Made by a program: the position numbers and the translations under genes. From IMG/VR virus record IMGVR_UViG_3300010397_000004, positions 11,023 to 75,022 of that record: DNA of 64,000 bases; one strand, given 5' to 3'. Positions 2,685-64,000 of the stretch are shown here, in pieces. The stretch is from a virus. The notes under the pieces were generated by a model. That model did no database searches, was not told where the DNA came from, and saw nothing but the letters and a program-made list of their open reading frames with translations. The number at the start of each line of letters is the position of its first letter. Position 1 is the stretch's first letter.

Positions 2685-3583
2685 CCGCCGACGTCCGTAT
2701 CTACTTTGGACAACCGGGCTCTCTTACGACGCTGCCGCACCCCAAGGGAGGCGTGAGGAGCACCCGGCTCCGTCCCACTGTTGTGTTCGGCACCGGTGGC
2801 GGCGGTGTGCGGGTCGGGAAAATCACCGGCGGCAAACGGCAGTACACGCTCAGCTGGAGCGGCCTCGACCTCGACACCTTCAGCACCCTGCTGGAGTTCG
2901 ATCAGGGCCACCGCGGGCCCGGGCCGTTCGTGCTGCTGGACCCCGGCCAGCGGAACATGCTGACCGTCAACCAGAGCAGCACAACGTCGGAGACCAACGA
3001 CACCGACAACTTCACTGTCGCCGGGTCCGGCTACTCCGCGACCAGCGAGTCCACTGTGTACCGTCGCGGGCCGCGGTCGTTCCGGGTGAACATCGCCTAC
3101 GCATCGCAGTCCGGCACCGTCACCTTGGATCCGCCGGCCGCGGACTGGCCCGGCATCCCGGTGTACGCCAGCCGGCCGATCGTGTTCTCGTACTGGGCGC
3201 GCGGCAGCGGGTCGGACCCGATCGTCACCCTGACCCCGAAACTGACCTGGTACAGCACCGCCGGGGTGAGCCTGTCCACGACATCTGGCACCCCGACCCC
3301 GACGGCGTCAGCGTCATGGACGCAGATGTCGGTAACGGACACCCCGCCGGCTTCGGCCGCCTACGTTCTCTGCTCTGTGGCCGCATCCGGGGGATCAATT
3401 TCGGCCAGCGCCAGCCTGTACTTCGACCAGTTCCAACTCGAGGAAGGCGCCGCCGCGGGCACCTGGCGGCCCGGCACCGGTGTCATGCCCGTCCAGATCA
3501 TCTCCGTCGCTGAGGGCTGGCCGTTCTACCACCCCGAGCTGCGCGACGCCCCAACGATGATCCTGCAGGAGGCGGGGCCGTAG
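2681..3583 (+). CDS. Minor tail protein (distal-tail-like, beta-rich with possible carbohydrate-binding insert)
   Basis: GTG overlaps the TMP stop (GTGA); directly after TMP; Ser/Thr-rich, '...YFDQFQLEEG' motif. Confidence 0.7.
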   Translation: MTADVRIYFGQPGSLTTLPHPKGGVRSTRLRPTVVFGTGGGGVRVGKITGGKRQYTLSWSGLDLDTFSTLLEFDQGHRGPGPFVLLDPGQRNMLTVNQSSTTSETNDTDNFTVAGSGYSATSESTVYRRGPRSFRVNIAYASQSGTVTLDPPAADWPGIPVYASRPIVFSYWARGSGSDPIVTLTPKLTWYSTAGVSLSTTSGTPTPTASASWTQMSVTDTPPASAAYVLCSVAASGGSISASASLYFDQFQLEEGAAAGTWRPGTGVMPVQIISVAEGWPFYHPELRDAPTMILQEAGP

Positions 3584-10090: not shown

Positions 10091-11302
10091 ATGCCTCGAC
10101 GAGTCCTACCGTTCGACCCGTCCATCGGCGAACGAGTCCGCGCACGACGCCAAATGCGCCGGTGGAGCATCCGCCACGCCGCCGGCCGCGCCGGCGTCGC
10201 ACCCTCGACCTGGATGCGGATCGAACGCGGTGAGCTCCGCACCGACCGGTACATGATCTCGGACCTTGCCGCTGCCTTGGAGTGTTCCATCGCCGACCTG
10301 ACCGGCCAGCCCATTCCCTCCAGCGACCGCAGCCTGACGGCCGCGCACGCACGCGTGATCGCGCTCTGGCGGGTCCTGGTCGAGGTGGCGCCGGACGAAC
10401 CACCGCGCCGCCCGGTCCTCGCCATTCCAGCGCTGAGCGCCCGCATGGACCTGATCGACAGCCGCCGGGCCGCCTGCGACTTCGCCGGGGTGGCCCAGCT
10501 CCTGCCGGACCTTCTCCTCGACCTCCACGCCGCCACTAGGGACCGCCGCCGCGGCCGCGCTGCCCGCCTGCTCTTTCTTCGCGCTACCTACTCGGCCGCC
10601 AGCACGCTGCGCAGCCTCGGATACCTGGCCGAGGCCACGATCGCGGCGGAGCGGTGCCGCCAGGTGGCTGAGCAGATAGACCAGGCGGTGCCGCTCGCTG
10701 TCGCAGACTGGGCCCGCGCCCACGTGGCCCTTTCCAGCGGTTCCTTCGGGCGCGCCCTGACCCTGGTCAGTCGGGCCGCGGACGACCTCGAGCGGAACCT
10801 CGAGGCACCGACGGCGCCCGAGGTGCTCGGCATGCTTCACCTGTCCACAGCCATGGCTGTCCTGGCCGACCATCGAACTGACGACGCGTTCGCTCACATC
10901 AACGAGGCCGCCCAGCTGGCCGCTCGCACAGGAGAAACCACCAGCTGGAACATGTGCTTCGGCCCGAGCAACGTCGCCCTGTGGCGCATGGGCCTCGAGG
11001 TCGACACCGGACAACCGGCGGCAGCGATCGAAACCGCGAACAACGTGCGACCCGCCACGATCCCTTCCGTCGACCGGCAGTCCGCGTACTACCTGGACTT
11101 TGGTCGCGCGCTGGCAGACATCCCGGGCCGCGATCGGGACGCCGTGCGCATGCTTCTGCAGGCGGAACGCGTCGCTCCCCAGCGCATTCGGTCCTCCGTG
11201 TCGGCGCGGGACACGGCTCGCTTCCTACTCGACCGCAGCCGTCGCGCCGAGGGCGGCTCCGAACTGCTGGGCCTCTGCGAACGCCTAGGGGTGCACGCGT
11301 AG
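10091..11302 (+). CDS. XRE-family HTH regulator with TPR-like C-terminal region
   Basis: 'IGERVRARR...AAGRAGVAPSTWMRIERG' HTH; C-terminal 'FGPSNV' and 'AERVAPQ' motifs of actinobacterial XRE-TPR proteins. Confidence 0.85.
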   Translation: MPRRVLPFDPSIGERVRARRQMRRWSIRHAAGRAGVAPSTWMRIERGELRTDRYMISDLAAALECSIADLTGQPIPSSDRSLTAAHARVIALWRVLVEVAPDEPPRRPVLAIPALSARMDLIDSRRAACDFAGVAQLLPDLLLDLHAATRDRRRGRAARLLFLRATYSAASTLRSLGYLAEATIAAERCRQVAEQIDQAVPLAVADWARAHVALSSGSFGRALTLVSRAADDLERNLEAPTAPEVLGMLHLSTAMAVLADHRTDDAFAHINEAAQLAARTGETTSWNMCFGPSNVALWRMGLEVDTGQPAAAIETANNVRPATIPSVDRQSAYYLDFGRALADIPGRDRDAVRMLLQAERVAPQRIRSSVSARDTARFLLDRSRRAEGGSELLGLCERLGVHA

Positions 11303-49210: not shown

Positions 49211-50235
49211 AGGTCGCAGTCACCGGCGGCGCCGGCTTCATCGGCGGCCACGTCGTCGACGAGCTCCACGCCCGCGGCCACCAGGTTCTCATCGTCGACC
49301 ACCACGGCCGGCGCGGCCACGCCACCGACGACGAGTTCATGCTCGCCGACGTCCGCGACCCTGTCGCCATGGCCGAGGTCGCCGCCCACGTCGACGGCAT
49401 CATCCACCTCGCCGCCTGTCTCGGCACCCAGGAGACCATCCGCAACCCGCGGCCCGCCGCCGAAACCAACATCCAGGGCGGCCTCAACTTCCTGGAAGGG
49501 CTCGCCCAGTACAACATCCCGGGTGTCTACATTGGAGTCGGCAACCACTGGATGAACAACAGCTACTCGATCACGAAGACGACGATCGAGCGGTTCGTTG
49601 CCATGTACAACCAGGAACGCGGTACCCGCTGCAACGTGGTCCGGCTCGTCAACGCATACGGCCCCCGCCAGTCCGTCGCCCCCCCGTTCGGGCCGGCCAA
49701 GGTCAGGAAGATCACACCCGCGTTCGTGTGCCGGGCGCTCACCGGCGCCGACATCGAGGTGTACGGCGACGGCGAGCAGATCTCCGACATGGTCCACGTC
49801 ACCGACGGCGCGAAGGCCCTGGTGTCCGCCCTCGAGCACGCCGCCGGCGGCGACGTGTTCGACCGGGCCGTCGAATGCGGGCCGGTCCAGTCGTGCACCG
49901 TCAACGAGGTCGCGCACCGGGTCATCGAGGCCGCGACCGGGTTCGGGTTCGACCCTGTCGACCTGGTCCATCTGCCCATGCGACCGGGCGAGGTGCCCGG
50001 CGCCCGGGTCACCGCGGACACCTCCACCCTGGCTCTGGTCGGCATGGACCCGGCCAGCCTGGTGCCCCTCGACGCCGGCATCTCCGACACCGTCGGCTGG
50101 TTCATCGAGAACTGGCTCTCCGGCTGGACCGCCGCTCAGCAGAAGGCGACCAGCACCCCGCAGGACCGGTGCGTCCGGGACAGCGGCGACTGCGGATGGT
50201 GCGCCCCGACCTGCCGGCAACTCGCCGCATCATGA
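49207..50235 (+). CDS. NAD-dependent nucleotide-sugar epimerase/dehydratase (extended SDR)
   Basis: 'VTGGAGFIG', 'IHLAA', 'YSITK' (YxxxK), 'NAYGPRQ', 'YGDGEQISDMVHV'. Confidence 0.93.
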   Translation: MKVAVTGGAGFIGGHVVDELHARGHQVLIVDHHGRRGHATDDEFMLADVRDPVAMAEVAAHVDGIIHLAACLGTQETIRNPRPAAETNIQGGLNFLEGLAQYNIPGVYIGVGNHWMNNSYSITKTTIERFVAMYNQERGTRCNVVRLVNAYGPRQSVAPPFGPAKVRKITPAFVCRALTGADIEVYGDGEQISDMVHVTDGAKALVSALEHAAGGDVFDRAVECGPVQSCTVNEVAHRVIEAATGFGFDPVDLVHLPMRPGEVPGARVTADTSTLALVGMDPASLVPLDAGISDTVGWFIENWLSGWTAAQQKATSTPQDRCVRDSGDCGWCAPTCRQLAAS

Positions 50236-50810
50236 CCACCGTCGTCGCCGCCGCCCGGGACGGCCTGGTCGCCATGGCCGCGGACACCATGGTCAACGTC
50301 TACGACCGGCCCGTGCCCGGCGGCGTCTCGAAGATCCTCCGGGTGCCGGCCGGCCGCGGTCAGGTCCTGCTCGGCTGCGCCGGCTTCGCCGGGATCATCG
50401 GCGTGCTCGCCGCCGGTCTACACATCGACGGCGAGCCCGAGGACGACGCGGCCGTCCATCCGTGGGCCCACGCCGTCGCGCACGCCGTGACCGACCTCGC
50501 CGTCGACGCCAAGCTCACCGACGACAGCGGCCGGATGGACGCCCACCTCATCCTCGGATGGCGCGGCCAACTGTGGACCCTCGGCCACATGGTCGCCGTG
50601 CCCGCACGCGACGGCGTCGCCGCGATCGGGTCCGGGGAAGGCCCGGCCATCGGTGCCCTCGACGCGCTGCTCGAGGTGGCCGGCCACGAACCGCTCGCCC
50701 AACTCGTCGCCCGGGCCGCCCGGATCGCAGCCGCCCGCGACCGGTACTCCGGCGGCCCGCTCGACGTCCACCTCCTGCCCGGGCCGGACGATGCTGACGC
50801 TGCCGGCTGA
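50232..50810 (+). CDS. Ntn-hydrolase protease (proteasome-beta/HslV-like)
   Basis: 'MTTVVAA..DG.VAMAADT', 'SKI', 'GCAG', 'AIGSG', 'DRYSGG'. Confidence 0.8.
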   Translation: MTTVVAAARDGLVAMAADTMVNVYDRPVPGGVSKILRVPAGRGQVLLGCAGFAGIIGVLAAGLHIDGEPEDDAAVHPWAHAVAHAVTDLAVDAKLTDDSGRMDAHLILGWRGQLWTLGHMVAVPARDGVAAIGSGEGPAIGALDALLEVAGHEPLAQLVARAARIAAARDRYSGGPLDVHLLPGPDDADAAG

Positions 50811-51231
50811 GGCATACGCCGCGGTCCTCGACCACTGCAGCCGGGCCCTACCCGACGAGGCGTGCGGCATCATCGCCGGCCCGGCCGGCCAGCCCCACGC
50901 CGACGTCTCCGCCACCCGGGTCGTCCCGCTGGCCAACGTGGCCGACCGACCCGGCAGCCGGTTCGAGTTCGACCCGACCCAGCAATTGGCCGCCTACGAC
51001 CAGATGGACGCCCTCCGCGAGGACCCGGTCGTCCTCTACCACTCCCACCCGGCCGGGCCGCCCGTACCATCCCCGACCGACGTGGCGGCCGCCGCCGGCG
51101 GAACCTGCCTCTGGCTCATCGTGGCCATGGCCGGCCCCGCCCCGAAAGCCCGGGTGTGGGCCATCGACGGCGACCAGGTCACCGAGCACGTGCTGCAGAT
51201 CGTGGACGGCCCCAGTGGACCCCCGGCCTGA
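50791..51231 (+). CDS. JAB/MPN+ (M67) metallo-isopeptidase
   Basis: 'LPDEACGIIAG' and JAMM motif 'YHSHP....PSPTD'. Confidence 0.9.
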   Translation: MLTLPAEAYAAVLDHCSRALPDEACGIIAGPAGQPHADVSATRVVPLANVADRPGSRFEFDPTQQLAAYDQMDALREDPVVLYHSHPAGPPVPSPTDVAAAAGGTCLWLIVAMAGPAPKARVWAIDGDQVTEHVLQIVDGPSGPPA

Positions 51232-52879
51232 CAGCTACGACCGGTGGGCCGCCTCGGAAGAGCCGGCCGCGTGGGACGACAACCCGTACGCCGACGACGT
51301 CGTATTCCCCGAACCGCCCACGTGGGCGCCCACCGCGGTGGACGCCGAAACGTTCGACCCGCAGGCGTACCTCGACCAGTTCGACCGGGTCCGGCTCGGC
51401 TCCGACCCCACCTACCGGCGGGCCGCCACCCGCCGCGACCCGCTTCTATTCGCCCTGGTCTACCTCGACCGGCACCTCCGCTCCGACGCCACCGCCGGCC
51501 AGGTCACCATGGCCGACCCGCACCTCGACTGGTGCCGGCGCGCCCTGGCCTGGCTCACGCCCGTCGTCGAGCCGCGCAGCCAACGACACGCCGAGATCGC
51601 CCCCCGCGAGACCGGCAAGAGCAGTTGGTGGTTCCTGGCCCTGCCCCTGTGGGCGGCCGCGCACGGACACGTGCGGTTCGTGGTCGCGTTCGCCGACTCG
51701 ACCGGGCAGGCCGAGACGCACCTGATGACGTTCAAGCGCGAGTTCGAGGTCAACCACCTCCTGCGCGAGGACTACCCCGACCTGTGCGCCCCGGCGCGCC
51801 GCCAGTCCGGCACCACGGTCGCCGACCGCCAAGGCATGATCCACCAGCGCAACGGGTTCTCCTTCGCGGCCAGGGGCATCGACAGCGCCAACCTTGGCCT
51901 GAAGGTGTCCGAACGGCGCCCGGACGTGATCCTGTTCGACGACGTCGAACCCGACGAGTCCTCGTACAGCGAGCTCCTGGCAGGGAAGCGGCTCCGCACC
52001 ATCATCGACGCGGTTCTCCCGATGAACCTCCTCGCCCGGGTCGTCCTCATCGGCACCGTCACCATGCCCGGGTCGATCGTGCACCAGCTGGTCCGGGCCG
52101 CCGCCGGCGACGACACCGAGGACTGGGTTGCCGAGGAACGGTTCGTCGCCCACCACGCACTCCCGATCGTCGTCCGCGACGACGGATCCGAGCGCAGCAT
52201 CTGGCCCGCGAAGTGGCCGATGGAGATGCTCAACGAGATCCGGCACACACGCTCTTATCGAAAGAACTTCGCCAACGACCCCATCGGCTCCAACGGCGGG
52301 TACTGGACTCTCGACGACTTCGTGTACGGCCAACTCGACGGAGTCGTCGCGGAGATCCTGTCCATCGACCCAGCCGTCACCACGAAGAAGACCTCCGACT
52401 TCACCGGCCTCGCCATCGTCGGCTTCCAACCATCCACAGTGGAAACCGACAGCCGCACCGGTCGCCGGGCGCAACGCCCATCGCGGTGCGTGGTCGAGGA
52501 GGCATGGGAGGTTCGCCTCACCGGCGACCCGCTACGCACCCACGTGCTGAAGCTGCTCGCCAGGCACCCACGCGTGCGCGCAGTACTGGTCGAAACCAAC
52601 CAGGGCGGCGAGAACTGGCACGCCATCCTTCACGACCTGCCCGTGAAACTGCTCACCGTGCACCAGACCGTGAAGAAGGAAGTCCGGGCCGCGAACTGCC
52701 TCAACTTCTACCAGCGGGGCCGGGTGCTCCACGCCAAGAAGCTCGCCCGCCTCGAGGAACAACAGACCGCGTTCCCGAAGGCCCCGCACGACGACATGGT
52801 CGACGCGGTGACCGCGCCGATCCTGCGCCTGCTCGCACCCGGCAAGCCGGGCAAGACCCAGACCGTGTTCCCACGATGA
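51215..52879 (+). CDS. Terminase large subunit
   Basis: Walker A 'APRETGKS', Walker B 'ILFDDVE', nuclease 'SIDPA...SDFTG', 'VETNQGG', 'HDDMVDA'. Confidence 0.93.
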   Translation: MDPRPDSYDRWAASEEPAAWDDNPYADDVVFPEPPTWAPTAVDAETFDPQAYLDQFDRVRLGSDPTYRRAATRRDPLLFALVYLDRHLRSDATAGQVTMADPHLDWCRRALAWLTPVVEPRSQRHAEIAPRETGKSSWWFLALPLWAAAHGHVRFVVAFADSTGQAETHLMTFKREFEVNHLLREDYPDLCAPARRQSGTTVADRQGMIHQRNGFSFAARGIDSANLGLKVSERRPDVILFDDVEPDESSYSELLAGKRLRTIIDAVLPMNLLARVVLIGTVTMPGSIVHQLVRAAAGDDTEDWVAEERFVAHHALPIVVRDDGSERSIWPAKWPMEMLNEIRHTRSYRKNFANDPIGSNGGYWTLDDFVYGQLDGVVAEILSIDPAVTTKKTSDFTGLAIVGFQPSTVETDSRTGRRAQRPSRCVVEEAWEVRLTGDPLRTHVLKLLARHPRVRAVLVETNQGGENWHAILHDLPVKLLTVHQTVKKEVRAANCLNFYQRGRVLHAKKLARLEEQQTAFPKAPHDDMVDAVTAPILRLLAPGKPGKTQTVFPR

Positions 52880-52900: not shown

Positions 52901-54634
52901 GTGCCAGCCCCCGCCGACCTGATCACCGCGTACGAGGAGCTCGTCGAGTACCGCCCGGCGTACGAAGAGGCCAAGGACATGTACGCCGGCCAGGTCGGCG
53001 AAACGTACGCGTCCGAGCGGGTCAAACGTCTCCTCGCCCGGGCGCGCGCCGACGACATCGAAGAGTTCAACTACGCGCACATCCCGGTCGACACCATCGC
53101 CAATCGGCTCGAGATCACGTCGGTGACCGTGGTCAGACCGGACGCGGACGACCAGACGACGGAAGGGGGCACCGGTGGGGTACGGGCCGACAGTCAGAAC
53201 ACCAAGACCCCGGATGCCGAGAAAGGTGCGCGCGTCGGTGAGGGTGCGGCTCCCAAGGCTGCGGATGCCGAGCACTACTCGCAGGCGCAGGCGGCGCTAG
53301 ACAAGCTCCGCGAGGACAACCAGCTCGACGCCGAATCCGCCGGCCTACACCACAAGGTGTCCCGCGACGGCGACTGCTACCTCATCGTCTGGCCGGCCAG
53401 CGACGACAAGGGCAAAGTCACCGCCGTCGATATGCGCGTCAACGACGCCCTCACCACCCGAGTCATCTACGACGTCGAGGACCCGCTCAAGGTCGCGTAT
53501 GCGATCAAGTCCTGGACCTACGACGAGGTCGACGCGGGCGGCAACAAGATCCAGCGCACCCGTGCCACCCTCTACTACGACAACCGGGTCGAGCGGTGGA
53601 TCAGCAAGCCCGACAAGAAGGCACAGGCCCTGTGCGACCCGGACGCCTGGCTCCCGTACGAACCCGTCGGCAAGGACGGCAAACGCGAACCCGCGGTGAA
53701 GGAACACGACTACGGCCGGGTGCCCGTCTTCCACTTCCGGAACGACCGGCCGTACGGCCAACCCGAGCACCGGTACGCGTACGGCCCGCAGCAGATGCTC
53801 AACAAGCTGGTCATGGCCCAGGCGGTCGCGGTCGACTTCCAGTCGTTCCCGCAGCGATACCTGCTCATGGACCCGTCCGCCGACCAGACCATGGCCAACT
53901 TCCTCGACCCCAACCACCCCGAGGACGACGACGACCCCGAGGGCGACGCCAACGCGTCCAACCTGTCGGCCGACCCGTCGTCGGTGTGGAAGCTGTTCGG
54001 CGCGAAGTCGACCGGCCAGTACGACCCGGCCTCACCCGACACCTTCCTCAAGCCGTTCGACCGCTACGTCCAAGCAATGGCCGAACTCACCGAGACCCCG
54101 CTCTACCGGTTCGGATCGGCATTCGCGCAGACCCCCAGCGGAGCCGCACAGCGTGCAGCCGACACCCCGACCGTCAACAAGGTCGAGAACCGGCAAAGCT
54201 CCTACGACGCCACCTGGGAAGACGCGTACCAGTTCGCGTTGAAGCTGCTCGGCTTCGACGTCACCGTCTCCGTGGCGTGGAAGCCCGCCGAGCAGGCGAC
54301 CGACTTCGAAGCGTGGTCCGTGGTCGGGGCCAAGGTCGACGCCGGGGTACCGCGTCGGCAGGCCCTCATCGAGACCGGGTACACGCCCGACCAGGTCGAC
54401 GAGTGGCTCGGCGGCGAGGCCGCGATGTCCGCGCTGCTACAGAAGAAGGTCGACCTGATCACCGGTGTCGCCAACGCGCTGCAATCGCTCGGAGCTGCAG
54501 TCGCCATGGGCGTCATCCACGAGGATCAGGTCGGTGCACTGGTGTCCTCATTGGTCGGTGAGGTACAGCAGAGCCAAGCCCAGGACACAGCGCCCGACAG
54601 CGGGCAGACCCAGGCCGCCGAGACAGGCACCTGA
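52901..54634 (+). CDS. Portal protein (SPP1-like)
   Basis: Follows TerL; 'GDCYLIVW', 'HDYGRVPVFHFRN', 'FPQRY', 'PSGAA'. Confidence 0.9.
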   Translation: MPAPADLITAYEELVEYRPAYEEAKDMYAGQVGETYASERVKRLLARARADDIEEFNYAHIPVDTIANRLEITSVTVVRPDADDQTTEGGTGGVRADSQNTKTPDAEKGARVGEGAAPKAADAEHYSQAQAALDKLREDNQLDAESAGLHHKVSRDGDCYLIVWPASDDKGKVTAVDMRVNDALTTRVIYDVEDPLKVAYAIKSWTYDEVDAGGNKIQRTRATLYYDNRVERWISKPDKKAQALCDPDAWLPYEPVGKDGKREPAVKEHDYGRVPVFHFRNDRPYGQPEHRYAYGPQQMLNKLVMAQAVAVDFQSFPQRYLLMDPSADQTMANFLDPNHPEDDDDPEGDANASNLSADPSSVWKLFGAKSTGQYDPASPDTFLKPFDRYVQAMAELTETPLYRFGSAFAQTPSGAAQRAADTPTVNKVENRQSSYDATWEDAYQFALKLLGFDVTVSVAWKPAEQATDFEAWSVVGAKVDAGVPRRQALIETGYTPDQVDEWLGGEAAMSALLQKKVDLITGVANALQSLGAAVAMGVIHEDQVGALVSSLVGEVQQSQAQDTAPDSGQTQAAETGT

Positions 54635-54636
54635 CC

Positions 54637-55641
54637 GTGGCCGGGCCGCTGCCCGACTGGATGACCGCCCACGACCAGCGGGCCCTCAAGTTCGAACAGC
54701 AAGCGCAGGACCACACCGCGGCCGCCCTCAAGCTGGCCCTTGCCGACGCGGCCCGCCGCCTGGCCGCCGAGTACATCAAGGCCGTCGGCAAACTCGATCA
54801 GCCGGTGCCGCCGACCGCGCAGAGCTCACTGCGCGCCGCCCTGCGCCGCATCGTGACCGCGCTCGCCACCGGCATGGTGTCCGAACTGCCGGCCCTCATC
54901 AGCGCGCTGACCGACATCGCCGAGCAGGGCCTGCGCCTCGGAGCGCACGCCTCGCCGGGCCGGCCGCGGCGAACCCAGCTGGCCCAGTCCGCCGAACTGC
55001 GCGCCGCGATCCGCCGAACTGAGAAGACCCTCCGCGACCAGATCGCCGAGATGCAGCAGCAGGCCGCGGCAGCAGACCTTCGCACCTTCGGTGACGTCAC
55101 CACCGTCATCGCCAAGGGCCAGCAGGTCGTCAACAAGGCCCAGGCCGCAGCCGCGTGGGCAGCCAACCGGGCCGTGAACGAAGGCGCCCGGGCAGTCGCC
55201 GACCGTTCGAAGTCACCGGTGCTGTGGGTGGCCGAACCCGGGGCGTGCCTGACCTGCTTGGCCTACGCCGGGCACCTCGCCGAACCAGGAGAACCCTTCC
55301 CGGCCGGGCTGACCTTCGGTGACAAGTCCACCGTGGACGAACCGATCGACGGACCACCGGCGCACCCGTGGTGCCGCTGCCGGCTGCAGCCCTGGTACGG
55401 CACCGAACCACAGTTCGGCGTCGAACTGCCCACCGCACTCAAGCGCGAAGCGCAACGCCAGGTACTGCGCGGGAAATCCCTGTACGCCTCGCGGCCCGCG
55501 AAGCTCCGGGCCGCTGACCGGCTACTCAAGACCAGCCTGTCCGGTCTACCCGAGCACGTGAAGCTCACCGCCGCGCACAAGGTACAGGCCGGTGTCATGG
55601 CCTGGGCCCTGCCAAAGCGGCCGCACACAACCAAGCCCTGA
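54637..55641 (+). CDS. MuF-like head morphogenesis / minor capsid protein
   Basis: 'WVAEPGACLTC', 'PPAHPWCRCRL'; follows portal. Confidence 0.8.
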   Translation: MAGPLPDWMTAHDQRALKFEQQAQDHTAAALKLALADAARRLAAEYIKAVGKLDQPVPPTAQSSLRAALRRIVTALATGMVSELPALISALTDIAEQGLRLGAHASPGRPRRTQLAQSAELRAAIRRTEKTLRDQIAEMQQQAAAADLRTFGDVTTVIAKGQQVVNKAQAAAAWAANRAVNEGARAVADRSKSPVLWVAEPGACLTCLAYAGHLAEPGEPFPAGLTFGDKSTVDEPIDGPPAHPWCRCRLQPWYGTEPQFGVELPTALKREAQRQVLRGKSLYASRPAKLRAADRLLKTSLSGLPEHVKLTAAHKVQAGVMAWALPKRPHTTKP

Positions 55642-55690
55642 GGCCGCGACGGTCCACCGGGGCAGTTCCCCAACCCAAGCGAAGGTCGAG

Positions 55691-56482
55691 ATGACACGAA
55701 CCCTGGCCGTGACGGCCAAACCGAACACGATCATCGGGTACCGCGCCAGCGGACAGCCGATCCGCCTGCACACCGGTGCGAACTGGAGCACCTTCCAGGT
55801 CACCCCGGACGAAGGCGGCGACGATGACGACGAGCCCGACGACGACGTCGACGACGTCGACGAAACGACCGACGAAGGTAGCGGCGACTGGACGCCCCCC
55901 ACACGCGAGGAGTGGGACCGCACCCAGGCCGGGCTGAAGCGGAACAACGCCGAGAACAAGCGGCTCCGTCTGCTCAGTAAGGCCCTCGCCGCCCGCGGTG
56001 TGGACCCGTCCACCGACGAGGGCAGGACCGCCCTCGACGAGCTGCTCGCCGGCCGCACCGTCGACCCCGACGGCAAACCCGCCGACGCCAGCGTGAAAAC
56101 GCAGATCACGAGGGCGGTTGAGCGGGCAACCGCGAAGACCGAAACCAAGTACAAGGGCGCGCTCGCGGCTGTGGCCGTAGAGGCTGCGCTCAGCCGGGCC
56201 GGGTACTCGGCCGGCGAGGAACGCCTGGCAAGGGTCATGAAGATGATCGACATGGACGAGGTCGACGTCGACGACGACGGCCAGGTCGTCGGCATCGTCG
56301 ACCAGATCGCCGACATCAAGCACGACGTCCCGGAATGGTTCCAGGGCACCACCAAGGCGCCCAGCGTAGTGCGCCGCGGCGCCGCCGACGTCGACGCCGG
56401 CCCCCGATCCACGAAGGCAACCGGCGACACCAAGACCTGGCTCGAGCGGGTCGACAAGCAGATGACCGGCGGCGGGGGCTGA
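55691..56482 (+). CDS. Capsid scaffolding protein
   Basis: 'IIGYRASGQPI', acidic linker, coiled coil, 'IADIKHDVPEWF'. Confidence 0.8.
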   Translation: MTRTLAVTAKPNTIIGYRASGQPIRLHTGANWSTFQVTPDEGGDDDDEPDDDVDDVDETTDEGSGDWTPPTREEWDRTQAGLKRNNAENKRLRLLSKALAARGVDPSTDEGRTALDELLAGRTVDPDGKPADASVKTQITRAVERATAKTETKYKGALAAVAVEAALSRAGYSAGEERLARVMKMIDMDEVDVDDDGQVVGIVDQIADIKHDVPEWFQGTTKAPSVVRRGAADVDAGPRSTKATGDTKTWLERVDKQMTGGGG

Positions 56483-56546
56483 CTCTCCGCACTGCACCTC
56501 CAGCACCACCCACCTGATCGCACATCACGGGCAGGGGGTGGAGTCG

Positions 56547-59500
56547 GTGGTCACCAGGAAACCATTCAAAGGCTCGCTGCATCCCCGCGGTGCGCACACC
56601 GGCAAGTTCGTCGAGAAGCTCGACGTACCAGCGTGGTTGAGCACCGTCAGCGGCCAGCTGCTCGACCTCGCAAGCGGCGGGACCGACCACAAGCAGGCGC
56701 AGGACCAGCGTGTGCACGCGGCCACCCGGGCAACCATGCAGGGCCACTCGCTGGAGACCGCCCGCCAACTGGCCCGGCCCGGCCGGACCGGAAAGGTCGA
56801 TCGGACCAAGCTGCGGGCCCAGGTCCGCGGCCTCGACGACGACAAGCTCGCCCAGCTCCGCACCGAACTGGGCAGCAAGGGCCACCCCGACGCTGTCAGC
56901 GTCGTCGACGCCGAGCTCGCCCGCCGAGCAGGCGCCACCGCGAAGGCACCCAAGGCGAAGCCGTCCCTGGCCGAACGCATCGACCAGGACGGGTACGCCA
57001 AGCAGATCCGCGCCATGAGCGACGACAAGCTCGCCGACGAGTTCGTTCGGATCTCCCGCCAACCCAGCCTCACAGCCCACGACGAAGCCGCGATCATCGC
57101 CATCGCCGACGAGATGGGCCGCCGGGACAACGCCCGGCACGCCGACACGATCAGCACTGAGCAGGCCCACCAGGACGCCCGGATCGACGCCCTCGTCGCG
57201 CGCGGGTACTCGTACCGGGACGCCTACGCCGAGGTGCACGGCCTCGACTCCGACGTGCTGGACCGGCAGGAGCGGGCGTCCCTTGTGGACGCCCAGCGAG
57301 CCAAGGGCGAAACCCGCGAGCAGGCCCTGCGCCGTCTCTACGCCGAGCACGTGCACCTCCAGTACCTGGCCGCCGAGCAGGCGTCGAACGGGCACCTGCT
57401 CACCCCGGCCGCGCGCGCGCAGGGCATCGCCGCCCTGTCGCTGTTCTCCGGCCCCAGCGCGCGGGCGAACAAGCATGCGTCGGATGAGCTGAAGGAGTTC
57501 TGGCGAACCCACCCGCGGGTCACGTACGCGGAGTTCAAGTCCGCGACGTTGGCCCGGCCGGCGGATGCGAAGGCGGCCGAGCGTGCCCGGCAGGCTGCTC
57601 GGACCGCCGAGGTGGCCCAGCCCGGCGACCGTGGTCAGAAACGCGGCCCGCGCAAGAAGCCCACCAGCCGCGGATCGCTCAGCGCCCCCGAGCGCCAGTT
57701 CCTGGTCGGGCTGTCGAAGGAGCACAGCGGGATCGCGTTCTCAGACGAGGACGGGTACCGCGACAAGGCCACCCGCGACCGCCTGGCAGAGCTGGGCTAC
57801 GTGCGGGTCGAGCCGGCCGGTGGCCGGCGGAAGGCCATCCACATCACCACGCACGGGCGCACCGCCGCGGCCGAACTCGACTCGAAAGCCATGGCCTCCG
57901 GGCCAGCGCCGGCGCAGGGGGTCTCCAGCAGCCAGCCGCCGATGGCGCGTGAACTCGCGCAACGGTCGATGACCGACCTTAGCCGCCTGGCCAGGATGTT
58001 CCATGTCTCGAGCAATGCCAAGGATCCCGAGGGTCTGGCCAGGGATATTCGAGCGAGCCGCCTTCGGGCCTGGCGCGTGCCGGGCGAGGACTCCGCCGCC
58101 GACATGGAGAAGGCCGCAGCTGGCGCCGACCATGAACTAAGGCGCGGGTTGGCCGAGATCGACGCGGCCAAGCCGGCGAAGCGGGTGCCGGCAAAGAAGG
58201 CCACCAGGAAGGCCGCCGCCCCTGACGTCGGCGACGTGGCCATCTGGGAGCCGCACGACGAGCCAGCAGTTCGTGGTGTGGTCGGCCGTGACGGACGCGG
58301 CTTGTACGTGGAGTGGCCCAACGGGACCGGCGGAAGCCCTCGCCGCGAGCGAATGACGGCGGTCAAGAAGGACGACCGGGTCCGGTTCGAGTCCCCCGAC
58401 GGCTCGCCGCTGGGCGGTTCGAAGCCACCGGCGAAGAAGGCCGCCAAGGCCGCACCGAGCGCCCCGGTGAAGCGCCTCACCGCCGCCGACCGGGCGCAGG
58501 CCGCCCGGGTGGCCAGTGCGTTCCACCAGGACTGGCAGAAGACCCAGCCCCTGTTGGGCGACGGCACCCGCAAGCCGAAATTCAAGACGACCACCGACCG
58601 GGCCTGGATCCAGGCACACGGCACCGACCAGGTGGACATCGCCAACACCTCATACGCCGACCTGCCCGACGACTGGCAGCAAGAGAACCGCGACGCCGCT
58701 GAGGTCGTGCAGCGAATCCTCAAGGAGCGCGGCGGCACCGTCGACCTGTCCGACGAGAAGACCCGCCTCGAGGTCGGCGACCAGATCCACAACGCTTGGC
58801 TCAGCCGACACGGCACCGAGGACTGGGTCAAGGAATCCGGCCTCGATGTCCCGTTCGCGGAACTGCCCCGGTCGGAGCAGGACAAGGACCTCGACCAGCT
58901 GAAGGTCGCCATGGCCGCCCTGGCGCCGGCCAAGAAGGCTACCCCGCGCAAGGCGGCCGGAGCTCCGCCGACGACCCGTGGCATCACATCCAAGGTCGAA
59001 GCCCGCAGGTCCGGGTTGATCGGGGTCGCCCGCAGTTCGGCTGTGGGCGGCAACAACCCGGCCGCCGAGGAAGTGGCCCGGATGCAGGGCTTCGATGCCA
59101 AGCCCAAGGTCGGCGACGCCAAGGCCGTGGACGCCGTGATCGCGGCCGGTGGTATCGAACTGTGGCGCGGCGGTGACCCGGCCAGCATCGACGCGATGCG
59201 CAGCGGGAACCTGCACTACGGCGGCGGGTTCTTCGGGTCCGGCTACTACTCTTCCGTCGGCCGGGGCGCGGCCGAGGACTTCTCCGGCGCCCGCGGTCAC
59301 AGCGAACCCGGCCACGGCGCTGTGGTTCGGATGGCGTTGCACCCGGACGCCAAAGTGGTCGGGTACGACGACCTCGACGCCCAGTACAAGAGCTTCGAGG
59401 CGAAGGACCCGCAACTGGCGAAGGCCATCGACCGCAACGGGTACGCGGCGATGCTCGGCTACGACGCGGTCCGCGTGCCGGCCAAATACGGGGACGGCAC

Positions 59501-62500
59501 CGCCAGCCCGGTCGACCAGCTGATCGTCCTCAACCGGTCGAAGCTGACGGTGGACCGGGACCAGGAGCACTACGCCACCGGCGACCTGCTGACCGACGCA
59601 GAGTTCGCCGACATGGTGAAGTGGTTCAACGCCAAGGACGCGGCGCAGGCCAAGGCGGACCGGGAAGCCAGTAAGGCCCGACGAAACACCGGGTCGCAGA
59701 CCACGCCAGCGAAGAGGTCAGCAGCTGCGGCACCTCCGTCTCATGTGGACGTACGCCGCGAGTTGGTCGCCGCCAAGACGCCCGACGCGCGCAAGCAGTA
59801 CCTCGAAAGCCTGGGCCTGAACAAGACCCAAGCCAACGCGCTCGCCAAGGCGCTGGGCGCCCGCCAGAACCGCGGCACCGTCGACGAGGTCCTCGACAAC
59901 ATCGTTCGATACTTCGACACCGGACCCGATACAAGGCACCACAGCGAGCCGCCCTCGGCGCCGGCCAAGAAGGCCGCGCCCAGGAAGGCCGCCAACCCGG
60001 GCGGCCTATTCGTCGCCCGACCCGGCCACCCCGGCCTTACGGCGGCGCAGAAGGCCGCGGTGCAGCGCTACACCAACAGCGACCTAGTGACCGCACAGGT
60101 CAACGACATTCTGCGCCAGGGCAAACCCCACACCGCACTCATCCGTCGCATCGACGAAGCCCTGGCCGGGTCACAGACCACAGAGCCAATGGTCACCTAC
60201 CGCGGCATGGCCGAACTGTCTGGCCACGGCCGCGAGGGCGGGGTCCAGCGGGCCCTCGGGCTCAGCGGGTCATCGCTGCCAGACAACCTGGTGGGACACG
60301 AATGGACCGAAAGGGCGTTCACCTCCACCACCCACCGGCGCGGCATCGCCGAGGTGTTCTCGTCTGGTCCGAACCCTGTGATCCTCGAGATCCGGGTGCC
60401 TGCGGGCACGCATGCAGTCGCCCGGCCCGGCGGTGAGGAGGAGGTCCTCCTCGATCGCGGCTTGACGTACCGGGTCGTGGGTGACCGGATCCAGACCCAA
60501 ATGGTGGGGATAAGCGGAGACGAACCGCTCCGGAAGCGTGTCCTCGAAGTCGAGGTGGTACCCAAGGCATCCGGTCGTGAGGCCCGCCAGGCCGAGATCA
60601 AGGCCGCCCGCCAGGTCAGTGATGTGGCCGCCGAGGTGCACGAGCTCGTTGGCAATGGGGCCAGTCCGGCGGCGATACGGCACCGCCTCGACGCCGAGGC
60701 GCAGCGCACGGGCATCGACACCCGGCGCTTGCAGGAGCTGGCCGACAACCCCGACGCGCTGAAGGCTGCCGCCGACAGGATGGCCGAGGCGGCCGGGCTA
60801 CGCCGAGTCGGCGATGTGCACCCGGCGCCGCCGATCCCATTCGACCGACGCAACCACAGCATCGCCGGCCCCGACATCGAACAGGGCCGGCCGGTGGATG
60901 TCCTGCGGCCCACGCACGTCGCCACCCTGAGCACGGGCGAAAAGGTCAACCTTGGGCCCGCCAAGGTGAAGGCGTCCACCCGGCCGCTGCCTGGCAGCGC
61001 CGCCGGCGGGACCCGGCCGGCGAAGGAGACGAAGAACGGCGTACCCGAGCCCGCGGGCACTGTGCGAGCGGAGGGCTACTCCAGCGCGCGGAACGTAAAC
61101 CTGCGAGTGGTGGCCGACGGTAATGGCGGCTACGTCGGCGAGCGCCAGGAACGCGGGACCGGCGAATGGCATTTCGATGGCGCGCTCGGCACCGGGAACA
61201 CCCCCAAGGACATCACCTCGCGCATGCCGCGTGGCCAGTGGAAAATGGTCGCCGCTCCGAAAGCGACGCCGCCGGAGGCCGCCCCGGCACCCCCCGCCCA
61301 GGGCGGCCTCTTGGCCGAATGGCATGCCCAGGACCAGACGCTTTCCGCCGCACCGGCCGGCCTCGACCGCCGCACCACCAACCTCACCCAGGCCCAGCGC
61401 ACCGCCCTGCGTTACTACCAGGGCGCCCCAGGGGTCGGTATCAACGCCGCCCTCTACCGGCCGCCCGCGCAACTACACGGGTCCACCAAGCGCACGATCG
61501 CAGCCATCGACTCGGCCATCGACGGGTCGCGCCTTACCGACGATGTCGAGGTGTGGCGCGGTATCCGCGGCGCCGACCGTGTCTTCGGCCGTGATCTCGA
61601 CGGAGACCTCACCGGCCACGAGTGGACCGAGCCCGCGTTCCTGTCCACCAGCGCCTCGCAACGCGTCGCGGCCGGGTTCGCCAGCGACAACGACGGTCCG
61701 CCCGCCCTGCTGCGCATCCGGGTACCCAAGGGCACCGGTGCGGTGCAGGTCAGCAGGCGCGACCACCAGGGTGAACTCCTGCTTCAGCGCGGGCTGCGTT
61801 TGCGGGTCACCGCCGACCACGGCACCAACGCCAACGGGCAACGGGTGCTCGACGTTGACGTGGTGCCGGCCGCCGAGGCGCCGGCCAACCCGGACGGCCT
61901 CGACGACATGGAGCCGCACAGCCTCCGCAGTTACGCCCAGGAGTACGAGGTCAAGGTCAGCGGGCGCACCGACGACCAGATCAAGGCCGACCTCCGCAAG
62001 CAAGGCATCGGGTCGCCAGCGTTCGAGCGAGCCAAGCAGGACGCCGAGGACGCCGCAGCCGGCGCCGAACCAGCAGTCACACCGGCGCACCTTCCCAGCG
62101 GCAGCACCGCGACCTCCACCCGGGTCGACGACCCAGCCGGCGAGCCCGGCCTGCTGCAAGTCCTGCCCGAGGCGCAACGCGGTGAGCCCGGCGACGGGAA
62201 GTACCGCAACCCGGACGGCACCCGCGGCCCGTGGGGCCGGTTCGGGGCATCTGGTCTCCTGCTGCGCCACGTCGGCCCCGACGGGCAGGCCCGGTACCTG
62301 CTGGGCCGCCGGTCTACGGGCGTCGAAAACGGTGGCACGTGGGCGTTCCCAGGCGGAGCGAAGGACGAGAACGAGTCCGACTACCAGGGCGCCGCCAGGG
62401 AGACAGCCGAGGAGCTCGGTCTGACCGACCAGGACCTGAGCACCGCCCGGGTCAACGGCACCCACACCGCGACCACGCCGGGCGGCTGGCACTACACCAG

Positions 62501-64000
62501 CGTCGCCGCGACGGTGCCCACCCAGTTCACGCCGAAGGACACCGAACACGGGTGGGAGACCGACGAAACGCGGTGGATGACCGCCGACGAGATCGCCGAA
62601 CTGGACCGCAAGGGCGAGCTCCACCCGGCCCTGGCCGGTGGGCAGTTGCAGGCCAACGTTCTCAGCCTGTTCCCCGACACCGCGACCCCGCGCGCGAAGG
62701 GCGGCGGCTCGGCCAGCACCTCGGCGCCTGCTGTCCGACGGATGTCGAACGACTTCTCCGGCGGCGTTATCCCGGTCATCGCGCGCGAGAAGGCCGACGC
62801 GCCGATCCACCTGCCCAACCACGGCAGCGACCAGGGACTGGTTCACCTCGACTCGGCGCTCGGGTCGCTGTGGAACGACCTGTACCACGACCAGCGTGAA
62901 CCGAACTCGTTCATCAACGAGATCGCCATCCTGGGTGACCGGTCGGGCAACTTCCAGATCAGCTTCGACGATGTCCTCGACCGGCTACGCGAACTGAAGA
63001 CGCAGGCCGCCGACCAGGCCGTGGCCAACCGGATCCAGGAGGCCATCGACTCCATCGACTCGCCGCGGGTCCCGGTCCCCGAGGTTCCCGACACCGTGCC
63101 GGACGTCGTGAAGAACTACCTGGCCGACCTCGCCGAGATCCCAACCGCCAGGCGGACGGGCCGCCTCGGCGGGCACGACACCGACAAGTCGGTGCTAGAC
63201 CAGCAAGCTGAACTCATTCGCCGGATCGACGCCGGTGAGGTCGACCGCCACCGCGCTCTCGACCTGCTCCGCGCGAGACACCTTCACGAAAGCACCGACG
63301 GGGCCACGCACATGTGGCGCCTGGCCGACCACCTGGTCACCCCGAAAATCGTGACCGGGTACGAGCGCGGGCCCGACGGCACCATGCAACCGGTCGAGGA
63401 GGACAACCCCAACTACAGGATTGTCCGTGACTGGCTGCGGGACGCCCACGCCCGCCGGGCTGGCCGCCCGACCAGCTCCAGCCCCGAAAGCAAGCCGCCG
63501 GCCACGGACAAACGCGGTGCGGCCCGTGCCGCCTACCAGGCTGTCGTGGACGCACGCCCCTACGCCACCGCCGGCGCCGAACTCGCCGAACTGCTCGACA
63601 AGAAGGCCGACAACAAGGTCATCGCCGAGCACATCAGGGCGATCGCTAACCCCGGCCACCCGGACATGGAGGAGGCCGCCCGCGGCGGCAACGGCGACAA
63701 GATCCGCCGCGACCTCGAGGCCGTCGCCACCGCGTTCGACCGCGGCGACGACGCGACCGGCAAACGGCTGATGCTGGCCCTGCTGAAGCAGCACAACCTC
63801 AGCACCGTTGGCGGCGAACCCGGTAACGAGAAGGCTTTCAACCCGGACGTGCACGAGGGCGTCGGCGGCGATCATCAGACGGGCGACCGTGTGCGCGTGG
63901 TCCGGCCGGGCGTCTCGCTGCGCCGCGGTCCGGGCGATGATGTGCAGCTGTCGCGGGCGTTAGTGCGCAGCGTGCCGACGGCCCCGGCCCCGGCTTTGGC
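56547..64000 (+). CDS. Giant (>2,480 aa, 3'-truncated) polyvalent protein: RyR repeat, three ART/ART-like domains, NUDIX, GrpE-like repeats
   Basis: Manually translated segments all fall in the same frame (start positions divisible by 3). The ORF track lists no + ORF in that frame past 56482, as expected for a frame with no stop before the window end. Motifs are detailed in the findings. Confidence 0.88.
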   Translation, partial: MVTRKPFKGSLHPRGAHTGKFVEKLDVPAWLSTVSGQLLDLASGGTDHKQAQDQRVHAATRATMQGHSLETARQLARPGRTGKVDRTKLRAQVRGLDDDKLAQLRTELGSKGHPDAVSVVDAELARRAGATAKAPKAKPSLAERIDQDGYAKQIRAMSDDKLADEFVRISRQPSLTAHDEAAIIAIADEMGRRDNARHADTISTEQAHQDARIDALVARGYSYRDAYAEVHGLDSDVLDRQERASLVDAQRAKGETREQALRRLYAEHVHLQYLAAEQASNGHLLTPAARAQGIAALSLFSGPSARANKHASDELKEFWRTHPRVTYAEFKSATLARPADAKAAERARQAARTAEVAQPGDRGQKRGPRKKPTSRGSLSAPERQFLVGLSKEHSGIAFSDEDGYRDKATRDRLAELGYVRVEPAGGRRKAIHITTHGRTAAAELDSKAMASGPAPAQGVSSSQPPMARELAQRSMTDLSRLARMFHVSSNAKDPEGLARDIRASRLRAWRVPGEDSAADMEKAAAGADHELRRGLAEIDAAKPAKRVPAKKATRKAAAPDVGDVAIWEPHDEPAVRGVVGRDGRGLYVEWPNGTGGSPRRERMTAVKKDDRVRFESPDGSPLGGSKPPAKKAAKAAPSAPVKRLTAADRAQAARVASAFHQDWQKTQPLLGDGTRKPKFKTTTDRAWIQAHGTDQVDIANTSYADLPDDWQQENRDAAEVVQRILKERGGTVDLSDEKTRLEVGDQIHNAWLSRHGTEDWVKESGLDVPFAELPRSEQDKDLDQLKVAMAALAPAKKATPRKAAGAPPTTRGITSKVEARRSGLIGVARSSAVGGNNPAAEEVARMQGFDAKPKVGDAKAVDAVIAAGGIELWRGGDPASIDAMRSGNLHYGGGFFGSGYYSSVGRGAAEDFSGARGHSEPGHGAVVRMALHPDAKVVGYDDLDAQYKSFEAKDPQLAKAIDRNGYAAMLGYDAVRVPAKYGDGTASPVDQLIVLNRSKLTVDRDQEHYATGDLLTDAEFADMVKWFNAKDAAQAKADREASKARRNTGSQTTPAKRSAAAAPPSHVDVRRELVAAKTPDARKQYLESLGLNKTQANALAKALGARQNRGTVDEVLDNIVRYFDTGPDTRHHSEPPSAPAKKAAPRKAANPGGLFVARPGHPGLTAAQKAAVQRYTNSDLVTAQVNDILRQGKPHTALIRRIDEALAGSQTTEPMVTYRGMAELSGHGREGGVQRALGLSGSSLPDNLVGHEWTERAFTSTTHRRGIAEVFSSGPNPVILEIRVPAGTHAVARPGGEEEVLLDRGLTYRVVGDRIQTQMVGISGDEPLRKRVLEVEVVPKASGREARQAEIKAARQVSDVAAEVHELVGNGASPAAIRHRLDAEAQRTGIDTRRLQELADNPDALKAAADRMAEAAGLRRVGDVHPAPPIPFDRRNHSIAGPDIEQGRPVDVLRPTHVATLSTGEKVNLGPAKVKASTRPLPGSAAGGTRPAKETKNGVPEPAGTVRAEGYSSARNVNLRVVADGNGGYVGERQERGTGEWHFDGALGTGNTPKDITSRMPRGQWKMVAAPKATPPEAAPAPPAQGGLLAEWHAQDQTLSAAPAGLDRRTTNLTQAQRTALRYYQGAPGVGINAALYRPPAQLHGSTKRTIAAIDSAIDGSRLTDDVEVWRGIRGADRVFGRDLDGDLTGHEWTEPAFLSTSASQRVAAGFASDNDGPPALLRIRVPKGTGAVQVSRRDHQGELLLQRGLRLRVTADHGTNANGQRVLDVDVVPAAEAPANPDGLDDMEPHSLRSYAQEYEVKVSGRTDDQIKADLRKQGIGSPAFERAKQDAEDAAAGAEPAVTPAHLPSGSTATSTRVDDPAGEPGLLQVLPEAQRGEPGDGKYRNPDGTRGPWGRFGASGLLLRHVGPDGQARYLLGRRSTGVENGGTWAFPGGAKDENESDYQGAARETAEELGLTDQDLSTARVNGTHTATTPGGWHYTSVAATVPTQFTPKDTEHGWETDETRWMTADEIAELDRKGELHPALAGGQLQANVLSLFPDTATPRAKGGGSASTSAPAVRRMSNDFSGGVIPVIAREKADAPIHLPNHGSDQGLVHLDSALGSLWNDLYHDQREPNSFINEIAILGDRSGNFQISFDDVLDRLRELKTQAADQAVANRIQEAIDSIDSPRVPVPEVPDTVPDVVKNYLADLAEIPTARRTGRLGGHDTDKSVLDQQAELIRRIDAGEVDRHRALDLLRARHLHESTDGATHMWRLADHLVTPKIVTGYERGPDGTMQPVEEDNPNYRIVRDWLRDAHARRAGRPTSSSPESKPPATDKRGAARAAYQAVVDARPYATAGAELAELLDKKADNKVIAEHIRAIANPGHPDMEEAARGGNGDKIRRDLEAVATAFDRGDDATGKRLMLALLKQHNLSTVGGEPGNEKAFNPDVHEGVGGDHQTGDRVRVVRPGVSLRRGPGDDVQLSRALVRSVPTAPAPAL

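Follow-up and report, generated by a model that had tools for sequence, protein, structure and literature searches.

The window analyzed here is a 64,000-nucleotide stretch of viral DNA, positions 11,023 to 75,022 of the 75,022-bp IMG/VR virus record IMGVR_UViG_3300010397_000004 (G000:C1:11023-75022). At its 3' end, directly after a scaffold-like gene, lies a frame in which a first-pass annotation, made from the letters alone, had claimed a hidden protein of more than 2,480 amino acids (aa) that combines several domains of ADP-ribose chemistry. This locus raises the questions of whether the frame is a single gene, what its product contains and whether that product is carried in the phage head. 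We found that the frame encodes a protein of 3,457 aa, hereafter the giant, with four ADP-ribosyltransferase (ART) domains of the Alt/VIP2 type, two further ART folds, a RyR-family domain and a NUDIX domain. We consider it probable that the giant is a polyvalent effector that is packaged in the head, leaves it with the DNA and is directed at NAD-derived chemistry.

A 3,457-residue reading frame across the record ends

In a listing of open reading frames (ORFs) that allowed open ends, the + strand frame 56538..63998 (2,487 aa) was free of stop codons within the window. Two in-frame GTG codons, at 56538 and 56547, are equally plausible starts; a G-rich, Shine-Dalgarno-like stretch lies 5' of both, with a GGGGG/GGAG-like sequence just before 56547. 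The two ends of the record are identical copies of a 123-bp direct repeat, and its circular reading is 74,899 bp (a 74.9-kb phage genome). In this reading the frame runs on across the repeat for 970 codons and stops at C1:3034. The full protein has a mass of 371 kDa and a pI of 7.4, and its gene takes up about 14% of the phage genome.

56538..64000, + strand: giant ORF, part in the window, aa 1-2487 of 3,457
G000:C1:122-3034: giant ORF, part beyond the window, aa 2488-3457, across the 123-bp terminal repeat

The claim of a hidden frame was therefore borne out, and extension and translation made the frame longer than had been claimed. No in-frame stop splits it in the window or across the circular junction to C1:3034. 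The part beyond the window holds a region without assignment (aa 2508-2790), followed by two more VIP2 ARTs and a second ART-like copy.

Many spurious long frames arise in high-GC DNA, and this gene spans the record ends, so a reading of it as an artefact, either a chance frame in 70% GC DNA or an assembly join, had to be weighed. We regard this as extremely improbable. In a phage of about 70% GC, the GC content at third codon positions was 81-92% in each 200-codon block of the ORF, as compared to 43-57% at position 2, which indicates that this frame is coding from end to end and is no chance high-GC frame. Database searches support seven domains in this frame. Furthermore, the two copies of the repeat are identical, and the frame stays open through the repeat and leads into more ART domains.

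ART, RyR and NUDIX domains of the giant

The effector-type domains are listed below in their order along the chain.

58470..58967, + strand: tandem RyR (R12/RyDEP-family) domain, aa 645-810; H663/W666, H751/W754/D784
59067..59627, + strand: ART-fold domain A, copy 1, aa 844-1030; R877, Y904, D976, Q994
60015..60572, + strand: Alt/VIP2 ART 1, aa ~1160-1345; R1222, S1263-T-T, E1300-x-E1302
61335..61892, + strand: Alt/VIP2 ART 2, aa ~1600-1785; R1674, S1703-T-S, Q1744-x-E1746
62181..62642, + strand: NUDIX hydrolase domain, aa 1882-2035; Nudix box aa 1940-1962 (nt 62355-62423)
beyond the window: Alt/VIP2 ART 3, aa ~2800-2977; R2851/S2876/E2924, AxE loop
beyond the window: ART-fold domain A, copy 2, aa 3006-3200
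beyond the window: Alt/VIP2 ART 4, aa ~3290-3457; R3339/S3370/E3415, ExE loop

Each of the four Alt/VIP2 domains (Pfam ADPrib_exo_Tox, PF03496) has the invariant R, the S-T-[ST] motif and the catalytic E. PF03496 scored 115 bits on P0001 and 60 bits on P0002, over two stretches in each case, with a curated cut-off of 23.4 bits. The residue two positions before the catalytic Glu is E, Q, A and E in ARTs 1 to 4, so the four domains differ in the loop that is usually tied to target choice. The NUDIX domain scored 44.2 bits with PF00293 (cut-off, 21.1 bits), and its Nudix box, GX5EX7REUXEEXGU, is complete, with every Glu, Arg and Gly position present. Among solved structures it is closest to mycobacterial RenU (6uuf, 1.3e-17), which prefers and hydrolyzes ADP-ribose (ADPR), FAD and NADH (PMC4401782). 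Both VIP2 ART calls and the NUDIX call of the first-pass annotation thus hold, above the Pfam cut-offs and with R-S-E and the Nudix box intact.

Internal repeats of the giant were sought by self-BLAST of 200-aa pieces, and domain A is present twice. A structure model of domain A, built from 11 sequences, had a predicted local distance difference test score (pLDDT) of 86.5. In Foldseek it matched the catalytic domains of PARP2, tankyrase and PARP4 (E ~1e-3), and in a viral structure library it matched many phage proteins (E to 5.6e-11, TM to 0.76), including proteins named PolyVal ADP-ribosyltransferase and a Microbacterium phage capsid-protease/MuF fusion. The earlier description of this segment as ART-like is therefore upheld at the level of fold. 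Invariant in the family are an Arg in strand 1, G-x-G-x-Y in strand 2, G-Y-D and L-N-R. ART-PolyVal (PF18760), which has an H-Y-D site, gave no direct match in the segment Pfam scan or the genome search; two domain A relatives match it below threshold (E 0.0036 and 2.3e-5). Strand 1 of domain A has Arg where the H-Y-D site has His. As modeled, domain A is a DT/PARP-like ART fold with an unusual R-Y-x site that is related to ART-PolyVal, and its enzymatic role is predicted.

Four relatives (P0028, P0029, P0063 and P0092) carry three to five tandem copies of domain A each, and P0016 has 5,843 aa; these five proteins suggest that multi-ART giants form a large family that is still unannotated. A chain of the cyanophage A4 pre-ejectosome (9k3a_B), returned by Foldseek and VIA with a root-mean-square deviation of 7.3-7.6, was considered as a packaged ART fold and set aside, as its paper mentions no such domain.

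The RyR domain was reached through intermediates. A HMMER search with aa 346-1170 returned 1,142 relatives, mostly on aa ~645-810, many of which are standalone proteins of 140-250 aa. Among such small relatives at 30-50% identity, 15 of 40 match the Pfam RyR family (PF02026), the best at 1.4e-11. The sole match of the segment in the PDB sequence search was an RyR1 repeat (E 0.5), which aligned to both half-repeats, and no relatives were found in the 'phages' collection or in viral_contigs. When a profile of this RyR subfamily was aligned by hhalign with RyDEP of mycobacteriophage DyoEdafos (E 4e-4, at a probability of only 35%), H751/W754 fell on H75/W78 and D784 on D117. We accept, from these sequence relationships, that aa 645-810 belongs to the RyR/RyDEP family.

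Phage RyR-domain proteins (RyDEP) have been reported to overcome Thoeris by cleaving or sequestering 2'/3' cyclic ADPR (2026 preprint, PMC13232231). The giant's domain is placed in the same family as RyDEP by transitive Pfam matches, and the H-x-x-W motif and the dyad Asp align. In contrast, RyDEP is a free 138-aa homodimer encoded among early and NAD-salvage genes, whereas the giant has a tandem-repeat version within a head-gene chain. For the role of the giant's domain, a glycosidase and a sponge are indistinguishable at this level.

N-terminal region, head genes and relatives

Apart from its effector-type domains, the chain contains the following features.

56580..56609, + strand: leader motif HPRGAHTGKF, aa 15-24
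56673..57563, + strand: head-association domain, aa 46-342, with homology to the C-terminal tails of MuF-like/minor-capsid-protein-2 proteins
57678..57881, + strand: claimed winged helix-turn-helix (wHTH)-like segment
58191-58205, 58431-58445, 58929-58943 and 59964-59978 (approximate): PAKKA[AT] linkers at aa 551, 631, 797 and 1142
58218..58391, + strand: claimed SH3-like segment, conserved jointly with the RyR domain in relatives P0016, P0075 and P0031
60579..60986, + strand: 135-aa module, copy 1, aa 1348-1483; helical bundle with a small beta part
62685..63437, + strand: conserved domain with no fold assigned, aa 2050-2300, common to at least six other giants
63525..63995, + strand: 135-aa module, copy 2, aa 2330-2486

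The leader follows the pattern HPR-x(1-7)-G-[KR]-[FW]. Seven other giants and three small ART-like proteins also carry this pattern, within residues 10-26, and P0007, a portal fusion, has it at residue 455, just past the portal domain. Our hypothesis, drawn from this distribution, is that the leader is a candidate cargo-loading or docking signal. The domain that follows (aa 46-342) showed 32% identity over 309 aa to a 390-aa portal-adjacent protein of a Microcystis phage. Its last part (aa 259-342) showed 54-59% identity to the extreme C-terminal tail of Streptomyces phage proteins that are annotated as MuF-like minor capsid protein or capsid maturation protease and whose first 354 aa are Pfam Phage_min_cap2. 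One more viral contig has a homologous tail in the same position.

In the first third of the chain, four near-identical Lys/Ala/Pro linkers, PAKKA[AT], mark boundaries between domains, and they may be DNA-contact or processing sites. The giant has no cysteine in 3,457 residues, as compared to a mean of 0.82% in ten neighboring phage proteins (P ~4e-13), and nine homologous giants (1,447-2,488 aa) are likewise cysteine-free. The absence of cysteine fits a protein that would travel unfolded through a narrow channel.

Effector domains of the same kinds occur on portal proteins in relatives. P0004 joins Phage_portal to a NUDIX domain that is 72% identical to that of the giant; P0007 consists of Portal_Mu, NUDIX and the ART-like domain A; and P0017 combines Phage_portal, a RyR domain (55% identical) and a VIP2 ART. 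Other giants, of 1,147-5,843 aa, share single modules with this one in differing orders, as in a mosaic. The search for relatives in genome_contigs gave a single match, in a Bacillota metagenome-assembled genome. The giant is probably head cargo because of its homology to MuF-like tails, the portal-fused relatives, the absence of cysteine, the shared leader motif and the PAKKA linkers.

The genes around the giant gene are as follows.

51215-52879, + strand: TerL, upstream head module
52901-54634, + strand: portal, upstream head module
54637-55641, + strand: 334-aa protein with weak MuF-type PHROG matches
55592-56482, + strand: scaffold-like protein (Pfam Phage_scaffold, 6.9e-12)
G000:C1:3031-3393, just beyond the window: 120-aa ORF (L003), overlapping the giant's stop codon (ATGA)
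G000:C1:3744-4808, 3' of the giant gene: major capsid gene

The gene order is thus TerL, portal, 334-aa protein, scaffold-like protein, giant gene, 120-aa ORF and major capsid protein. This agrees with the earlier placement of the frame in the capsid operon, right after the scaffold gene, and sets it between the scaffold and major capsid genes. For the 334-aa protein after the portal, Pfam gave no match, and the PHROG matches, to minor head proteins of the MuF type, were weak (E 4e-5 and 3e-4). The MuF core and the MuF tail may be divided in this phage between the 334-aa protein and the giant. A complex prediction for this neighbor with giant aa 1-345 scored 0.00; it was run without controls and is evidence neither way. 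The 120-aa ORF had no match in Pfam, PHROG or NCBIfam; it could encode a chaperone, an immunity protein or a head protein. Directly upstream of terL (window 49728-51231) we observed a gene for an HslV-like Ntn peptidase (phrog_1040); the head module itself showed no recognizable canonical prohead protease. This peptidase might act as a processor of head proteins or of the giant.

The 135-aa module had been described as GrpE-like. It is a genuine repeat, with two copies in the giant, and recurs in a dozen other giants, with four copies in one of them. Its AF2 model (pLDDT 78.6) is a four-helix bundle with a poorly defined beta part, which in Foldseek PDB (best E 0.66) and VIA matched generic helical bundles only. 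GrpE (PF01025) had no match in the Pfam scan of the module segments and no candidate in a six-frame genome search to which 14 of 14 control genomes responded, and a two-copy module profile did not find it in the PDB. The module stretch '...F[ND]P..HE...V.VVRPG...' has a putative resemblance to GrpE. The GrpE label should be dropped until there is a better model, as Pfam, the PDB profile, Foldseek and VIA gave it no support. The module had no match in viral_contigs or genome_contigs and no small standalone homologues.

Among the remaining segments, aa 1-640, aa 2050-2300 and aa 2488-2790 had no credible match in the PDB sequence search, and aa 2050-2300 had no usable match in the ESM Atlas. An NCBIfam search added nothing. 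The sole support for the wHTH-like segment was a sub-threshold match to the winged-helix Pfam family DUF6293_C (aa 410-444, E 0.006), and that call was not confirmed.

Taken together, the first-pass description of the chain stood for the frame, the VIP2 ARTs, the NUDIX and ART-like domains, the RyR domain (transitively), the N-terminal domain and the linkers; the GrpE label found no support, and the wHTH call was not confirmed. At the N-terminus, the motif that it had noted proved to be one shared with seven giants and three small relatives, the helical domain ending '...ELKEFWRTHPRVTYAEF' proved homologous to the tails of MuF-like proteins, and the AKKAA-type basic linkers correspond to the four PAKKA[AT] copies.

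A probable packaged effector and competing explanations

The first-pass annotation had proposed a co-ejected effector that combines ADP-ribosylating writers with NUDIX and RyR processors. This proposal fits the location between scaffold and capsid genes, the MuF-tail N-terminus and the portal-fused relatives; the GrpE-like description of two modules found no support. In the mechanism that we favor, a single 371-kDa polyvalent virion-cargo chain would be made late, along with the head proteins, and the HPRG leader and the MuF-tail-like domain of about 300 aa would bring it into the procapsid. The cysteine-free chain would then exit with the DNA, and its modules would act in the first minutes of infection. 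Using NAD+, the four R-S-E Alt/VIP2 ARTs (ExE, QxE, AxE, ExE) and the two DT/PARP-fold ARTs would modify several host targets. The RyR/RyDEP-type domain would bind or cleave cyclic-ADPR defense signals, and the RenU-like NUDIX would hydrolyze ADP-ribose-type dinucleotides. A joint action on NAD-derived chemistry is suggested because the substrates are established for each family: NAD+ for ARTs, cyclic ADPR for RyR, and ADPR and NADH for NUDIX.

Several observations weigh against a packaged, NAD-directed effector. The giant chain contains no Pfam MuF, Phage_min_cap2 or portal domain; its N-terminal domain is no MuF core, and only the tail region is common to it and the MuF-like proteins. No fold could be assigned to about 40% of the chain, including aa 2050-2300 and aa 2508-2790. 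PF02026 gave no direct match to the RyR segment or in the six-frame genome search, so that the earlier call of a RyR repeat stands by way of the 15 of 40 relatives and the RyDEP alignment. In that alignment the phosphate-binding H100 of RyDEP is replaced by Ser in the giant and is not conserved in this RyR subfamily. Similarly, the usual position of the catalytic Glu varies in the domain A family (Q994 in copy 1, E3203 in copy 2). Finally, a cargo of 371 kDa is large for a capsid of about 75 kb. Phage N4, however, reportedly packages a protein of similar size, its virion RNA polymerase of about 3,500 aa, in the capsid of a phage of about 70 kb and ejects it into the host. Such cargo would thus be physically possible, and the domains and function of the N4 protein are unrelated to those of the giant.

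The giant could instead stay out of the particle, work as a late multi-enzyme in the cytoplasm of the producing cell and disappear when that cell lyses. Its task there might be, for instance, to shut off the host late, to block abortive-infection signaling or to exclude superinfecting phages. We infer packaging here, the chain itself has neither a portal nor a MuF core domain, and DyoEdafos RyDEP is an early-to-mid cytoplasmic protein and not a head protein (PMC13232231), all of which would suit such a role. It is nonetheless unlikely, given a gene that sits within the head block between the scaffold and capsid genes, an N-terminus homologous to minor-capsid-protein tails, the same domains fused to portals in relatives, and a chain that avoids cysteine. 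Quite improbable, in our estimation, is a MuF-type polymorphic toxin that serves a lysogen, is released on particles or at lysis against competitors and has its immunity gene downstream. The class has been described (PMC5576092), toxin-type ART domains are shuffled among the relatives, and the 120-aa ORF is translationally coupled to the giant's stop through the ATGA overlap. However, the coupled ORF matches no immunity family, the giant has at least nine modules instead of one C-terminal toxin and no Pfam MuF domain, and RyR and NUDIX are modules of a counter-defense type and not of a toxin type.

A mainly structural role, whether as an internal core, in condensing DNA or in setting the size of the capsid, with the enzyme domains as decayed passengers, would account for the roughly 40% of the chain without an enzyme assignment and for the Lys/Ala/Pro PAKKA linkers, which resemble DNA-binding tails. 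We hold this to be very improbable: R-S-E is kept in all four VIP2 ARTs, the Nudix box is intact, and domains are swapped among relatives, where colinearity would be expected of a structural protein. The packaged, co-ejected effector therefore remains the reading that we prefer. It can be extended to a virion-preloaded dismantling of NAD-derived immune signals before phage expression, in which cyclic ADPR of the Thoeris type would be linearized or sequestered by RyR, NUDIX would degrade the ADPR so formed and the six ART folds would re-route NAD+ to host targets, with the HPR-x-G-[KR]-[FW] leader as a general capsid-loading signal for the cargo of high-GC phages. In this full form the proposal is speculative, and we consider it doubtful.

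Relation to known phage effector systems

Polyvalent proteins are giant phage and plasmid proteins with 2-15 effector domains that are mosaic and encoded with packaging genes (Iyer et al. 2017, PMC5512222). Among their modifying domains ART is the most frequent, and one protein may have as many as 12 copies; the same survey treats the R-S-E clade of Alt/VIP2 ARTs as separate from the H-Y-D ARTs that polyvalent proteins contain. The giant resembles them as a giant chain with many effectors, encoded with packaging or head genes, with shuffled modules, multi-copy ARTs and a predicted co-delivery with DNA. Their hubs, in contrast, are H-Y-D ART-PolyVal, zincin, methylase and SNF2 domains, whereas the giant combines four ARTs of the R-S-E type with two DT/PARP-fold ARTs of the R-Y-(Q/E) type, RyR and a RenU-like NUDIX, and lacks any peptidase, methylase or helicase.

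A second survey described MuF and portal proteins that carry Alt/VIP2 ARTs and Nudix domains as fusions (Iyer et al. 2022, PMC9503650). These fusions, and T4 Alt, likewise tie Alt/VIP2 ARTs and Nudix to head proteins, with injection predicted and, for Alt, shown. The fusions mostly carry one effector per head protein, whereas the giant is a separate protein with its many modules and only a MuF-tail-like N-terminus. MuF polymorphic toxins (Jamet et al. 2017, PMC5576092) are similar in having a head-module gene with variable toxin-type domains; unlike them, the giant has no MuF domain, single C-terminal toxin or recognizable immunity gene.

Several unrelated effectors in one phage chain, a location among virion genes and mosaic shuffling are all present in the giant, which adds a large member to the known polyvalent class and is no new kind of system. 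The earlier statement that its architecture had not been described was thus too strong: the class is described in PMC5512222 and PMC9503650, and the function of phage RyR proteins in PMC13232231. RyR is not mentioned in either of the two surveys. The giant differs by its R-S-E ARTs in a polyvalent chain, two ART folds with an R-Y-x site, a domain of the RyR/RyDEP family and a RenU-like NUDIX.

If the giant were not packaged, it would be another large multi-domain late protein. The action of RyR proteins on the cyclic-ADPR signals of Thoeris was shown only in 2026, and there for free cytoplasmic proteins (PMC13232231). The occurrence of RyR, an ADPR-type NUDIX and six ART folds in one giant encoded among head genes suggests that, in some phages, such enzymes may enter the host ready-made along with the DNA. 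The cysteine-free chain, the leader motif and the portal-fused relatives provide handles on how very large cargo is loaded and ejected.

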